Source: Candidatus Spongiisociaceae bacterium (lineage in GTDB: Bacteria > Actinomycetota > Acidimicrobiia > Spongiisociales > Spongiisociaceae). From it: a stretch of DNA of 64,000 nucleotides. Below, in pieces: positions 55,130-63,630 of this stretch. The stretch lies in the NCBI GenBank assembly GCA_965219685.1, contig CBDCOH010000002.1, forward strand, positions 2,016,001-2,080,000. The letters are read 5' to 3'. Both the position numbers and the translations under genes were made by a program. How positions within the stretch are numbered: the first letter of the stretch is position 1; each line of letters opens with the position of its first letter. Below the pieces are notes generated by a model. That model was not told the DNA's origin, did not search any database, and saw only the letters and a program-made list of their open reading frames with translations.

Positions 55130-56821
55130 ATGACCGCTAAGCGCCAAGAGAGTTCAGGTGCACCTCCGGGGGGCGTGCGCGCCCCGGTCGGCACCTCGTT
55201 GACCTGCCTCGGATGGCCACAGGAGGCGGCCTTCCGGATGTTGCAGAACAACCTCGATCGCGAGGTCGCCGAAAGGCCCGACGACCTGGTGGTGTACGGC
55301 GGCACCGGACGGGCCGCCCGGTCGTGGGACGCATACCACGCGATGATCCGGACGCTCACGACACTCGCCCGCGACGAGACGATGCTCGTCCAGTCGGGCA
55401 AACCCGTCGGCGTCCTCCGCACCCATGAGTGGGCGCCGCGGGTGCTGCTCGCCAACTCCAACCTGGTGCCGGACTGGGCCGACTGGGACGAGTTCAGGCG
55501 CCTCGAACACCTCGGCTTGACGATGTACGGACAGATGACAGCCGGCTCATGGATCTACATCGGGACCCAGGGCATCCTGCAGGGCACCTACGAGTGCTTC
55601 GCCGCCATCGCTCGCAAGCGGTTCGGCGGGTCCCTGGCCGGAACCCTCACCGTAACGTCGGGGCTGGGAGGCATGGGCGGCGCCCAGCCCCTGGCGATAA
55701 CCATGAACGACGGGGTCGCCCTGTGCATCGAGGTGGATCCCGACCGGGTTGACCGCCGTCTCGCGACCCGCTACCTCGACGTGGTCGCCGACGACTACGC
55801 GGACGCTATCCGGCGTTGCTCCGAGGCGGTGGCCGCCCGACGGCCCCTGTCGGTGGGTCTGGTCGGCAACGCGGCCGACCTGGTGCCGCGTCTCCTGGAC
55901 GACGGGGTACCCGCCGACATAGTGACCGACCAGACCCCCGCTCACGATCCGCTGAGCTATGTCCCGGACGGCCTGTCCACGGACGAGGCCGACGAGTTGC
56001 GCACCAAGAAGCCCGACGAGTACATCGTCCGCTCCCGAGCCGCCATGGTCGCCCACGTGGAGGCCATGGTCGGGTTCCTGGACGCCGGAGCAGAGGTGTT
56101 CGACTACGGGAACAGCTTGCGGGCCGAAGCCGAACTCGGCGGGTATGACCGGGCCTTCGCCTATCCCGGATTCCTGCCCGCATATATCCGTCCGTTGTTC
56201 TGCGAGGGCAAGGGACCGTTCCGCTGGGTGGCGCTGTCCGGAGATCCCGCCGACATAGCGGCGACCGACCGGGCGGTCCTCGATGAGTTCCCCGACGACG
56301 AAGGGCTCCGGCGTTGGATCACCCTGGCCGGGGAACGGGTCGCCTTCCAGGGTCTTCCCGCCCGGATCTGCTGGCTGGGCTACGGCGAGCGTCACCGGCT
56401 GGGGCTGCGGTTCAACGACATGGTCCGCACCGGGGAACTGAAGGCACCGATCGTGATCGGGCGCGACCATCTCGACTCCGGGTCCGTGGCCTCACCGTAC
56501 CGGGAGACCGAGGACATGGCGGACGGCAGCGACGCCATCGCCGACTGGCCCCTTCTCAACGCAATGGTCAACACCTCCTCCGGGGCATCTTGGGTCAGCA
56601 TCCACCACGGAGGCGGGGTCGGCATCGGCCGGTCCATCCATGCCGGGCAGGTGTGCCTGGCCGACGGAACCGACCTCGGTGCCCAGAAGCTGGAACGCGT
56701 CCTGCTCAACGATCCGGCCACCGGCGTCATCAGGCATGTCGACGCCGGTTACGAACTCGCCGGTCGGGTTGCCGCCGACCGGGGGGTGCGCGTTCCGATG
56801 GCAGAAGTGGACCCCCGTTAG
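55130..56821 (+). CDS. hutU: Urocanate hydratase
   Basis: [45 protein letters not shown]. Confidence 0.97.
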
Positions 56822-58362
56822 TGGCCGGGCGGCGCCGCCGGGGCGGGCGCCGCGCCCGCATCGCAGAGCGCGGCCCCTCAAACCCTCAGCGCCCCTTCCG
56901 CCAGCCCCGTCTCCCCTGGCACCCGGTGTCCGCCATCACCGACGACCGGCTCGAAGCCATCCATGAGGCGTCCCTGCGGGTCCTTCGCGACGTCGGCATG
57001 GATATGCTGCACCACGAGGCCAGGACGATCCTCCGCCGGGAAGGCGCAGATGTCGATCCCGACTCTGCCCGGGTGCGGTTCGACCCCGAGATGGTCACCG
57101 AACTCGTCGGCTGCGCGCCCGACGAGTTCACCCTGCATGCTCGCAATCCCTCGCATCACATCCACCTGGGCGGCCGCTCCGTTGCGTTTACGGCGGTGGC
57201 CAGTCCTCCCAACGTCTCCGGCCTGGGCCGAGGCCGGCGCAGCGGTAACCGGGAAGACTTCCGACAACTCGTTCGCCTGAGCCAGCACCTGAACGTCGTC
57301 CACCTGCACGGTGGGTACCCGGTGGAACCCACCGACATCCATCCATCCGTCCGTCACCTCCACGCCACCCTCGACCTACTCACCCTCAGCGACAAGGCCA
57401 TCCATACCTACAGCCTCGGACGGCAGCGGACTCTGGACACCATCGAGATGGCCCGAATAGCCCGCGGGATAAGCCACGAAGACCTGGACACCCAGCCTTC
57501 GATCTACACGATCGTCAACACGTCGTCGCCGCTGCGCCTCGACACCCCCATGATCGAGGGGATCCTCGAACTGTCGGCCCGCAACCAGCCGGTTGTGATA
57601 ACCCCGTTCACGTTGGCGGGTGCGATGGCTCCGGTGACGATCGCCGGGGCCCTCGTACAGCAGAACGCCGAGGCCCTGGCCGGGATCGCGCTAACCCAAG
57701 CCGTGCGCCGCGGGGCACCCGTGGGCTACGGCGGGTTCACCTCCAACGTCGACATGCAGTCCGGCGCGCCCGCCTTCGGCACCCCCGAGTACCTGCAGGC
57801 TGCGCTCATCGGCGGCCAACTGGCACGGCGCTACCGCCTTCCTTACCGGTCGTCGAATGCCAACGCTTCCAACGCCGTGGACCTCCAGGCCACCTACGAG
57901 AGCATGTTCTCGCTCTGGGGCGCGGTGATGGGCGGCGCCAACCTGGTGCTTCATGCGGCGGGATGGCTCGAAGGGGGGCTGCGCGCCTCCTTCGAGAAGA
58001 TGGTTCTCGACGCCGAGATGCTGCAGATGATCTGTGCTGCGCTCGAGCCGCCGGTGGTCGACGAGGGCTCCCTGGCGGTCGACGCGATCGCGGACGTGGG
58101 TCCGGGCGGCCACTTCTTCGGTACCGCCCATACGCAGGCCCGCTACCGGGAAGCCTTCCACACGCCGCTCCTGTCCGACTGGAGCAACTTCGAGACATGG
58201 GCCGAGGCAGGACGGCCCGACCCGGGCCAGCGAACCGTGTCCCTCGCCAGGGAGTTCCTGGACTCCTACCGGCCGCCTCCCATGGACCCCGCCATCCGCG
58301 AGGAACTCGAGGAGTTCGTCGCCCGCCGGGTCGGCGAGGGCGGCATAGCCACCGACTACTGA
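56821..58362 (+). CDS. MttB superfamily (non-pyrrolysine) methyltransferase
   Basis: IHEASLRVL, NTSSPLRLD, GAMAPVTIAG, GAPAFGTPE, HAAGWLEGG, GPGGHFFG; GTG start shares a base with the hutU stop. Confidence 0.92.
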   Translation: MAGRRRRGGRRARIAERGPSNPQRPFRQPRLPWHPVSAITDDRLEAIHEASLRVLRDVGMDMLHHEARTILRREGADVDPDSARVRFDPEMVTELVGCAPDEFTLHARNPSHHIHLGGRSVAFTAVASPPNVSGLGRGRRSGNREDFRQLVRLSQHLNVVHLHGGYPVEPTDIHPSVRHLHATLDLLTLSDKAIHTYSLGRQRTLDTIEMARIARGISHEDLDTQPSIYTIVNTSSPLRLDTPMIEGILELSARNQPVVITPFTLAGAMAPVTIAGALVQQNAEALAGIALTQAVRRGAPVGYGGFTSNVDMQSGAPAFGTPEYLQAALIGGQLARRYRLPYRSSNANASNAVDLQATYESMFSLWGAVMGGANLVLHAAGWLEGGLRASFEKMVLDAEMLQMICAALEPPVVDEGSLAVDAIADVGPGGHFFGTAHTQARYREAFHTPLLSDWSNFETWAEAGRPDPGQRTVSLAREFLDSYRPPPMDPAIREELEEFVARRVGEGGIATDY

Positions 58363-62176: not shown

Positions 62177-63630
62177 ACCTCCCCAACCCAACCGGACACA
62201 ACCAGTGGTACCCGTTCGCCAACCGCCCCCTGCCTCCCGAGGTCGACGGCTGCGCGGTCAACCCGGCGGCGATACCGGTCTTCGATTCCATGCCCCTGCC
62301 GCGCAGCGCCCGCTTCGTGGTGGTCGGAGCCGGTGTCCATGGCCTATCGAGTGCCTACCACCTGGCCATGTATCTCGAGCGATCGGGCATGGGCAAGGGC
62401 AGCGACGTGGTGCTGATCGACAAGCAGGGCCCGGGCGCCGGCGCCACGGGCCTGGCCTGCGGATGCGTGCGCAACCTCTACATGACCAACCCGCTGCACG
62501 CCATCCTGCGCGCCAGCGTGGAAGTGTGGGAGTCCGATCCCGTGAACTTCGGATTCCAGCAGGTCGGCTACGTATCGGTCGGCGAAGCGAACCAGTATGA
62601 GGACTACATCGAACTCCACGCCTCCCAGGCGGCCAGCGGATACCCGTCAGACCTCTACACGGGATCGGACGCGCACGCCTTCCTGACCAAGCTGTGGCCC
62701 GACTTCAAGACCGAGAACTGCGACGTGGTGCTCCACGAGCACCGCTCCGGATACGCCGGTACGCACATCGCCGTGTGGGGCCTCGACCAGAAGTGCCGCC
62801 AGTGGGGCGTGCAGCGTGTCTACGGGACCACGGTCACCGGCTACGAGCGGGACGCGGCGGGCTCCGTCACCGCGGTCGAGACCGACCACGGATCGATCTC
62901 CTGCGACCACGTGGTCGTCGGCGCCGGGGCGTGGACACCCCAGCATTGGGAGTGGCTCGGGGGACCGTCACACCTCGACGTTCTCTACCCCGACGGTCAC
63001 GTCGAGGAGCAGATGGACATGTGGACCTACTGGCGCCTCCTCGAAGGCGAAGTCATCCTTCCCGAGGGCGTGGACTTCCGGACCGCCCAGTACCGGGACT
63101 CGCCTGTCCTGCACGTGGAGCTCCTGGACACGCCGGTCTACGGCGAGGACGGGACGATGATCAAGGACCACACCTACGTGTACACGCGCTACGCGGCCGA
63201 GCGGGTGGGCGCTCCCGGCCTCCAGGGCGGGACGATCCCCATCAAGATAGGACCCCGAGCGGAGGTCGAGCCCTACGGCCACCTCAACGACCTCTACCAG
63301 GCGGAAGAATGGTTCGCCGACTACTACTGCTCCGCCCTGGGCATGCTCTTCAAGCGGCTCGAGAACCTGAGGCCCTACTTCAAAGACCGCCGGAACGGTG
63401 GGATCGGCGCGTTCACGCCCGACAACGTGCCCGTGTTCGACCATCTGGCCGACAACGCATGGGTGATCGCCGACTCCAACCACGGTTTCAAGATGATCGG
63501 CGTCGGCAAGCTGACCGCTCAGATGCTCGTCTACGGAGAGAAGCCCGACGAGTTGAAGCCGTTCACGCTCGACCGGTACCGCACCGGCAGCACGTTCGGG
63601 GACCGGAACTCGAACAGCCCGTGGGTATAG
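62173..63630 (+). CDS. FAD-dependent oxidoreductase, sarcosine-oxidase-beta/N-methylglutamate dehydrogenase A-like
   Basis: [53 protein letters not shown] coupling to hutI. Confidence 0.8.

Follow-up and report, generated by a model that had tools for sequence, protein, structure and literature searches.

A histidine utilization operon interleaved with a predicted N-demethylation module in a Candidatus Spongiisociaceae bacterium

The window analysed here is a 64,000-nt stretch of contig CBDCOH010000002.1 (C2 below) from a Candidatus Spongiisociaceae bacterium (genome G000, 96.7% complete), and it carries an expanded histidine utilization (hut) operon of nine genes. Seven of these are read on the forward strand in the order hutU, mttB, a gene for a 225-amino-acid (225-aa) protein, def, hutF, hutI and a flavoprotein gene, with iclR and hutH divergent from them on the reverse strand. 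A PhnD-like gene starts ~200 bp past the flavoprotein gene and continues beyond the end of the window (Table 1). The true extras of this hut operon are the MttB, the 225-aa protein (ABM fold), the flavoprotein (SoxB fold) and the PhnD-like protein. The locus would interleave a five-step Hut pathway (HutH, HutU, HutI, HutF and a def paralogue for the missing HutG) with a four-gene N-demethylation module, the whole behind a single promoter that would be guarded by the HutR-like IclR regulator. The best reading of the operon, which we put forward tentatively from sequence and predicted structure, is that the module converts hercynine (N-alpha-trimethylhistidine) to histidine.

The genes of the operon are tightly packed. 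hutH and iclR overlap by 4 nt, mttB has a GTG start that has 1 nt in common with the hutU stop (TAGTG), and a 10-bp gap separates mttB from the 225-aa gene, which is preceded by GAGGAG. The four remaining junctions are all overlaps (225-aa gene/def, ATGA; def/hutF, GTGA; hutF/hutI, GTGA; hutI/flavoprotein gene, ATGA). A terminator scan returned no terminator-like site inside this run, and its single site (3.1 expected) was located in the iclR-hutU spacer. The junction distances (-1, 10, -4/-7, -4, -4, -4) were shared by 13 loci of other species, including an Ilumatobacteraceae metagenome-assembled genome (MAG) and a sand MAG, indicating that the tight packing is not due to chance. This confirms the coupled run from hutU to the flavoprotein gene as described in a first-pass annotation of the window made from the sequence alone.

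Table 1. Genes and regulatory features of the expanded hut operon, numbered from the first nucleotide of the window
Feature	Position in window	Strand	Evidence
hutH, histidine ammonia-lyase with MIO Ala-Ser-Gly (ASG) triad	52746..54272	-	TIGR01225 643 bits vs cut-off 539; ASG at residue 141
IclR-family regulator (HutR-like), operon partner of hutH, divergent from hutU	54269..54982	-	PF09339 37 bits and PF01614 62 bits
Palindrome TTTCATATTCTGAAA, candidate IclR operator	55015..55029	.	1 match in window, 0 in 100 shuffles
Promoter-like TTGACA, 18 nt, TAATCT	55044..55073	+	Read from sequence
hutU, urocanate hydratase	55130..56821	+	TIGR01228 882 bits vs cut-off 375
Non-pyrrolysine MttB-family methyltransferase, A-R-H-G clade	56821..58362	+	PF06253 635 bits; 4yyc 1e-103; 2qne/9yce 1e-92
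225-aa protein, unnamed family, ABM/Dabb-type fold	58373..59050	+	Model pLDDT 90.8; Foldseek: SO0527, SnoaB, LsrG
Peptide-deformylase paralogue (def), probable N-formylglutamate deformylase	59047..59616	+	PF01327 138 bits; motifs intact
hutF, formimidoylglutamate deiminase	59613..60980	+	TIGR02022 440 bits vs cut-off 413
hutI, imidazolonepropionase	60977..62176	+	TIGR01224 333 bits vs cut-off 298
FAD flavoprotein, fold of sarcosine oxidase beta / L-proline dehydrogenase beta / dimethylglycine oxidase	62173..63630	+	PF01266; 1y56_B 9e-24; 3ad7_B 1.7e-26
PhnD-like (PF12974) protein, 268 aa, predicted cytoplasmic, 5' part	63829..64000 (gene end 64635 = C2:2080635)	+	PF12974

Conservation was followed in two samples, one of 61 related genomes (in which the unpublished genomes G032 and G043 count as negative in the tallies) and one of 80 species-level loci for which the 225-aa protein served as the anchor. 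The 225-aa protein was present in 20 of the 61 genomes, and the whole cluster was found in the same order in 14 loci from 13 of them; a short sea-cave contig (L066) displayed part of the same gene order. Within 10 kb of the 225-aa gene in the 80 loci, a PhnD-like gene was detected in 35, an MttB in 33, the flavoprotein in 25 and hutU in 17. Both MttB and the flavoprotein were carried by 13 of the 17 hutU-bearing loci and neither by the other 4, in agreement with the linkage of mttB and the flavoprotein gene to hut operons expected at first pass.

The 147-bp spacer between iclR and hutU holds a TTTCA-N5-TGAAA palindrome that is unique in the window and located 15 bp upstream of a conserved TTGACA. 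TTGACA together with a TAATAT or TATTAT box was kept in relatives. A strict sigma-70 scan gave 0 promoter-like sites, so that the TTGACA/TAATCT pair was not called, and a repeat search with seed 6 did not pick up the 5+5 palindrome. In the 1.30 Mb of the 80 loci the palindrome had 15 matches, all at the boundary between iclR and the module, 12 of them at hut-embedded and 3 at stand-alone modules. IclR orthologues with 54-82% identity flank both kinds of module. TTTCA-N5-TGAAA is therefore a candidate operator of the IclR regulator, and its presence at both kinds of module suggests that the hut genes have been wired to the regulator-operator pair of the stand-alone module. A second match in the genome (C2:60975) was taken as chance; the AT-rich spacer that contains it is flanked by genes for a UvrD/PD-(D/E)XK helicase and a ResIII protein.

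HutH, HutU, HutI and HutF all scored above their own NCBIfam equivalog cut-offs, and HutU scored below the cut-offs of two thiourocanate hydratase models. HutH and HutU are accordingly canonical, as had been noted at first pass, with the ASG triad of HutH kept. Outside complete hut sets, HutF-like deiminases with 47-50% identity were found in two MttB/DMGDH-like clusters without HutH and HutU (L112, L126), and an amidohydrolase with 26-27% identity to HutI was found in three loci (L112, L116, L120). These genes may point to a hut-like pathway that acts on a modified substrate.

PF06253 covers the MttB over profile positions 1-499 of 500 and the gene has no in-frame UAG. Its closest solved relative was 4yyc, followed by the glycine betaine methyltransferase MtgB (2qne/9yce). 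In MtgB, Y97 and F356 hold the ammonium group (cation-pi) and R312 and H348 hold the carboxylate, the Y97A exchange raises the Km ~340-fold, and members that act on other acidic quaternary amines keep R312 but not the aromatic pair (available part of PMC13080624). Site residues were mapped by hand from a HMMER alignment to MtgB and checked in 34 MttBs. The window MttB has A127 and G386 at the positions of Y97 and F356, and R343 and H378 at those of R312 and H348. The same A-R-H-G pattern was displayed by 30 of the 31 MttBs beside the 225-aa gene in the 80 loci (48-88% identical), the remaining one (L125) having Gly at the first position. The loss of the aromatic pair together with the retention of Arg and His points to some acidic quaternary amine, and not glycine betaine, as the likeliest kind of substrate. 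No paper that joins MttB with hercynine was found in the literature.

Two further MttB paralogues are present in G000. One adjoins an MtgC-like corrinoid gene (C2:456952-457659) and has a Y-R-H-G pattern, with Tyr at the first position. It belongs to a full aerobic MtgB-type system (L053, C2:450001-464056) that includes a Rieske oxygenase, ETF alpha and beta, a DMGDH-like protein, the MtgC-like corrinoid protein, DUF1638, RACo and an MTHFR-like protein. The other paralogue (L054, C2:414029-419174) has neither the Arg nor the His of the carboxylate site; DMGDH-like and ornithine cyclodeaminase genes adjoin it, an MFS gene lies ~1.6 kb off, and this cluster may be of the proline-betaine type. 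Overall, G000 encodes, outside the window, two corrinoid proteins with RACo activators, as well as DUF1638, MTHFR-like, pterin-binding and URO-D proteins, the second corrinoid set (URO-D, corrinoid protein, RACo, pterin-binding) being located at C2:4280410-4285431.

The flavoprotein belongs to a family of more than 3800 homologues, with a mean column identity of 73% in a 37-sequence alignment. Sequence alignment to solved proteins was limited to residues 42-269 and 398-472, with 1y56_B as the best match of the family profile against PDB sequences. The structural model (pLDDT 84.6) matched heterotetrameric sarcosine oxidase beta (3ad7_B; TMt 0.82) in Foldseek, followed by L-proline dehydrogenase beta, dimethylglycine oxidase and dehydrogenase, and monomeric sarcosine oxidase, so that the nearest folds are all those of N-alkyl-amino-acid oxidases. 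ESM Atlas returned generic DAO clusters only. Against the SoxB-family model TIGR01373 the protein reached 63.5 bits, far from the cut-off of 529, no MgdA-specific model in the libraries searched matched it, and the window holds no partner alpha, gamma or delta subunit gene and no GCV_T, SoxD, SoxG or MgdBCD-like gene. Some JGI records name homologues with 64-75% identity "methylglutamate dehydrogenase subunit A". The folds, the low score and the lack of partner genes together suggest a protein that works like an N-alkyl-amino-acid oxidase and is not classifiable as SoxB or MgdA. The resemblance to MgdA proposed at first pass thus held for the sarcosine-oxidase-beta/dimethylglycine-oxidase fold and not for the family score or the partner subunits; the observation that the window has no other Mgd subunit genes was correct.

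A group of 448-aa homologues of the flavoprotein on metagenome contigs (L147, L155, L161, L163, L168) displayed a setting of its own, with a gene for an FA_desaturase-like membrane oxygenase directly ahead and a 281-aa XRE regulator divergent. A PhnD-like gene adjoins the regulator in the loci scanned on that side (L147, L155, L168), peptide-type ABC importer genes are located downstream where scanned, and an amidase (L161 and L163), GSTs and BKACE are among the neighbours. The 281-aa XRE regulator, which adjoins PhnD-like genes in other phyla, was considered as a relative of the ABM-fold protein and rejected, as there was no similarity (hhalign probability 0.1).

The 225-aa protein has no Pfam and no NCBIfam match, and its family profile found nothing at E<=10 among PDB sequences. 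The family comprises 496 representatives at E<=1e-3 among 1.84 billion sequences. In Foldseek its model matched ABM/Dabb-type barrels over ~98 residues only (E 2.6e-4 to 7e-4; TMt 0.68-0.77), and ESM Atlas gave hints of ABM/DUF3291 below 0.9. The conserved His, Cys, Arg, Trp and Tyr of the family lie mostly on predicted strands. The PhnD-like protein matched PF12974 (94.7 bits) and scored 44.9 bits against TIGR03431, short of the equivalog cut-off of 261. Its PF12974 domain starts at residue 23 and the homologues start with the domain itself, leaving no room for a signal peptide, from which the protein is predicted to be cytoplasmic. The PhnD-like gene was located directly behind the 225-aa gene in 15 loci and behind the flavoprotein gene in 17. 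Two protein clusters (453 and 456 aa) consist of an N-terminal PhnD-like domain fused to a C-terminal 225-aa domain (hhalign probability of the PhnD-like domain 99.9, E 4e-31 and 6e-31), and one of them is present on several contigs of up to 283 kb. These natural fusions are good evidence that the ABM-fold and PhnD-like proteins act as one unit.

All contexts of the 225-aa gene are those of betaine or related methylated onium catabolism. One type combines MttB with DMGDH-like, GbcA-like Rieske, DddP-like, rhodanese and OpuAC-ABC genes; others include MttB with DMGDH-like and amidohydrolase genes, GS-like genes and, in one locus, a TauE gene. In Aldehydirespiratoraceae MAGs (L095-L107, e.g., L097:3057-10600) a cluster of MFS, MttB (A-R-H-G), GbcA-like Rieske, DMGDH-like, DddP-like M24 and ABM-fold genes is divergent from genes for a rhodanese and an ABC transporter fused to OpuAC; a GMC oxidoreductase is encoded nearby.

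In the proposed pathway, the non-pyrrolysine MttB would take a single methyl from an acidic quaternary amine and hand it to a corrinoid protein, encoded at another place in the genome, from which it would go on to tetrahydrofolate. The SoxB-fold flavoprotein would then take off the remaining one or two N-methyls oxidatively, with the ABM-fold and cytoplasmic PhnD-like proteins as a two-part accessory of the module. The histidine freed in this way would be converted by HutH, HutU, HutI, HutF and Def into glutamate, ammonia and formate. The likeliest substrate would be hercynine, supplied by the sponge host or its community. EgtD (hercynine synthase) was not found in G000, making self-made hercynine unlikely in this organism.

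Two points alone suggest that the module yields histidine, the operon fusion and the related clusters with an alternative lyase or Rieske oxygenase. Four hut clusters have the ABM-fold and PhnD-like genes and no MttB or flavoprotein. In one of these, from an EgtD-positive Acidimicrobiales MAG, a second HAL-family lyase (L087:3732-5171, reverse strand; 479 aa) has GAS-D instead of ASG, i.e., is MIO-less, and reaches 218 bits with the hutH model (cut-off 539). The protein is a candidate trimethylammonia-lyase for a histidine betaine or ergothioneine; a lyase of this kind that acts on hercynine is known from Shewanella woodyi (bioRxiv 10.1101/2025.08.13.670108, available part). In another, a Rieske/VanA-like oxygenase (L090:3214-4233, reverse strand; 339 aa) is encoded between def and hutU and may be an oxidative N-demethylase for a histidine betaine. 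HutU is canonical in both. EgtD exceeded its cut-off in 4/4 of the hut clusters with ABM-fold and PhnD-like genes and no MttB or flavoprotein, 5/12 genomes with stand-alone flavoprotein modules, 6/26 other contexts of the 225-aa gene, 5/61 genomes of the order-level sample and 1/13 hut-embedded genomes, counts that are descriptive only as the genomes are related and the counts not independent.

Several observations weigh against the conversion of hercynine to histidine. hutU was present in only 3 of the 10 genomes with a flavoprotein-ABM module outside hut and not found in 7 of 10, and hutH was present in 1 of 5 genomes with a stand-alone flavoprotein module (completeness is given for neither set), indicating that the module does not need Hut. 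The enrichment of EgtD is weak (5/12 in stand-alone modules against 6/26 in other contexts of the ABM gene). MttBs of the same A-R-H-G clade (58-65% identity) are located beside DMGDH-like, GbcA-like, DddP-like and OpuAC genes, and A-R-H-G clusters without a full hut set exist, two of which (L112, L126) carry a HutF-like gene. Flavoprotein homologues of 448 aa (64-66% identical) are encoded in unrelated operons with no hut genes and no 225-aa gene near. An importer gene and a second operator-bearing promoter were not found in the window or the genome, and the window has no gene for a corrinoid protein or a methyl-corrinoid:tetrahydrofolate methyltransferase. On the last point, the MtgB proteins of Ruegeria pomeroyi use MtgC, MtgD, RamA and DUF1638 from other loci (according to the available part of PMC12478193). 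With this precedent and the MtgC-like corrinoid proteins, RACo, DUF1638 and pterin-binding/MTHFR-like genes elsewhere in G000, the absent local corrinoid partner is no longer an objection, and the caveat raised on it at first pass falls away. The module would accordingly be a general demethylation device, the substrate of which is not fixed by these data.

The occurrence of the module without hut, the 7 of 10 genomes in which hutU was not found, the same-clade MttBs in generic betaine or sulfonium clusters and the close flavoprotein homologues in unrelated operons all speak for an alternative, which we consider doubtful and yet the most serious, that the module demethylates another acidic betaine or N-methyl amino acid (glycine betaine, proline betaine, glutamate betaine). 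Its link to hut would then be one of regulation only, the module serving as an additional supply of nitrogen and one-carbon units with a product that stays outside the Hut pathway. The flavoprotein identity of 74-86% between hut-embedded and stand-alone modules also suggests one substrate everywhere. However, such co-regulation leaves out of account the interleaved order, in which mttB and the 225-aa gene stand between hutU and def and the flavoprotein gene behind hutI, with overlapping stop and start codons, all kept across several families. The genome's own MtgB-like system (corrinoid protein, RACo, DMGDH-like gene) already looks suited to glycine betaine, and the aromatic pair of MtgB is absent from the window MttB. 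Moreover, other hut clusters pair the same accessory genes with a MIO-less lyase or a Rieske oxygenase. Demethylation of hercynine by MttB and the flavoprotein to feed HutH, one of two routes suggested at first pass, survives as the best reading, still held tentatively and tempered by the modules for which no hutU was detected.

The last step of the Hut pathway lacks its usual enzyme. No match to the N-formylglutamate amidohydrolase HutG (PF05013) was obtained in the 96.7%-complete genome. The sole arginase-family gene scored 179 bits against the hutG cut-off of 229 in the formimidoylglutamase model (TIGR01227) and passes the agmatinase cut-off. G000 has two def genes, of which the other is the housekeeping copy, and the hut copy is 35-38% identical to it. 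The hut copy keeps GSGIAANQ, EGCLS and HECDH, the three catalytic motifs of peptide deformylases, and passed NF001159 (133 bits vs cut-off 125) and not TIGR00079 (94 bits vs 104). Among the 61 related genomes, HutF exceeded its cut-off in 22, and an FGase was found in 4. The def gene overlaps hutF by 4 nt in 13 loci, and in all five additional relatives whose hutF surroundings could be read the hut cluster contains a def paralogue, with differing gene orders and no MttB or flavoprotein gene near. The presence of def in every readable hut cluster of the order together with the lack of HutG in the genome makes it probable that the def paralogue is an N-formylglutamate deformylase replacing HutG, i.e., a core Hut enzyme and not an extra gene. 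That it is only a second peptide deformylase outside histidine degradation, with another enzyme hydrolysing N-formylglutamate, would fit its score with the peptide-deformylase subfamily model, the three intact motifs and one operon (L064) that does without def. We regard this as unlikely in view of the overlap with hutF, the recurrence of def in hut clusters of differing order, the lack of any FGase or formiminoglutamase and the presence of a separate and only distantly similar housekeeping copy. No paper linking peptide deformylase to N-formylglutamate was found in the literature, the single co-occurrence being incidental. COG0624, an earlier candidate for an alternative N-formylglutamate deformylase, is reported to be without activity in the available part of PMC3223725.

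The other route suggested at first pass, in which HutH, HutU, HutI, HutF and Def would convert N-pi-methylhistidine into N-methylglutamate, which the flavoprotein would demethylate to glutamate as an MgdA-like enzyme of one subunit, is in keeping with the SoxB-type fold, the JGI label on some homologues and the position of the flavoprotein gene as last of the coupled run, but it is highly improbable given that the flavoprotein is accompanied by MttB and the ABM-fold and PhnD-like proteins in genomes without detected hutU, falls far below the SoxB-family cut-off, has no GCV_T, SoxD/G or MgdBCD-like partner in the window and stands beside four ordinary Hut equivalogs, and that the route leaves no role for MttB.

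The conversion of hercynine to histidine can be extended to a wider proposal, which is improbable as a joint claim. Marine Acidimicrobiia would have a complete aerobic histidine-betaine pathway, in which an MttB of new specificity and a single-subunit SoxB-fold oxidase convert hercynine stepwise into histidine, for salvage in EgtD-positive species and for catabolism via Hut in sponge symbionts. The ABM/PhnD-like pair would be a new two-part enzyme or sensor for an ergothioneine-derived oxyanion, and the def paralogue the N-formylglutamate deformylase of HutF-type pathways without HutG. The pair would, e.g., produce hercynine by removing the sulfur of ergothioneine or of its sulfonate, an idea hinted at by the rhodanese and TauE genes beside some family members.

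Several other genes lie around the operon. A PIN/Phd-YefM toxin-antitoxin pair (52000-52670, reverse strand) is inserted between a RidA-like gene (51522-51899) and hutH, and a HigB-like toxin gene is located further upstream (47495-47800, reverse strand). Two AAA_14/DUF4143 ATPase genes (39056-40312, forward strand; 49996-51279, reverse strand) belong to a family with further members beside the operon of relatives and in the clusters of the Aldehydirespiratoraceae MAGs. The window also holds three large genes for xanthine-dehydrogenase-family molybdenum subunits in a row (30495-38899), phosphotriesterase-family genes at 17729-18694 and 24704-25627, and several amidohydrolases elsewhere. Just downstream of the PhnD-like gene, an Acyl_transf_3 protein with ankyrin repeats is encoded (C2:2080688-2082262; L136:1688-3262, reverse strand), its position being kept in relatives.

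Hercynine and ergothioneine are widespread histidine betaines, and the described breakdown routes that we found start with a trimethylamine-releasing lyase. If the proposed pathway is true, demethylation back to histidine would be a new fate of histidine betaines and would give the MttB superfamily of aerobes substrates of a new class. Symbionts could then use host betaines for nitrogen and one-carbon units and form no trimethylamine in the process. The def paralogue, if its proposed role is true, would fill the missing step of HutF-type pathways without HutG. The ABM-fold and PhnD-like proteins form a conserved two-protein unit, as yet without a name, in betaine catabolism. The argument for Def, the comparison of MttB sites, the negative hutU counts, the shared operator and the natural ABM/PhnD-like fusion are new.

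Compared with known systems, the operon is closest in its Hut part to the five-step pathway with an IclR-type HutR annotated in corynebacteria (PMC3350403, available part), with which it shares ordinary HutH, HutU, HutI and HutF equivalogs and an IclR-family gene adjoining hutH. It differs in lacking either type of HutG, with a def paralogue in its place, and in having four non-Hut genes interleaved. The MttB resembles the MtgB of the MtgB/MtgC/MtgD systems of Desulfitobacterium hafniense and R. pomeroyi (the parts of PMC13080624 and PMC12478193 available to us) in its TIM barrel, the absence of a pyrrolysine codon and the carboxylate Arg and His, and, as in R. pomeroyi (PMC12478193, same part), the corrinoid, RACo/RamA, DUF1638 and pterin-binding/MetF-like genes are located elsewhere in the genome. 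In contrast to MtgB, it has Ala and Gly for the aromatic pair, and its gene is located in a hut operon adjoining the ABM-fold gene instead of a corrinoid gene. The flavoprotein has the same two-domain FAD amine-oxidase fold as sarcosine oxidase beta, L-proline dehydrogenase beta and dimethylglycine oxidase (3ad7_B, 1y56_B, 1pj6; Foldseek E 1e-26 to 1e-23), with a TMt of 0.81-0.84 to the sarcosine oxidase and L-proline dehydrogenase beta chains. It is, however, only 18-20% identical to these proteins, has a ~130-residue insertion (270-397) and a 40-residue N-terminal extension, and is without alpha, gamma and delta subunit genes and without a folate-binding GCV_T domain. The 225-aa protein is like the ABM/Dabb superfamily (SnoaB, LsrG, SO0527) in fold, without a sequence-family match, and the PhnD-like protein matches PF12974 as do PhnD-type class II binding proteins but is without a signal peptide, reaches 45 of the 261 bits required by the equivalog model and is fused to the ABM domain in two clusters. 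Finally, the histidine betaine trimethylammonia-lyase of S. woodyi (bioRxiv 10.1101/2025.08.13.670108, available part) and ergothionase also feed histidine betaine into the urocanate pathway, and a MIO-less HAL-family paralogue is found in the related hut cluster L087 together with the same ABM-fold and PhnD-like genes. The window has neither lyase, and the route proposed here would instead strip the methyl groups singly, via histidine and HutH, with no release of trimethylamine.

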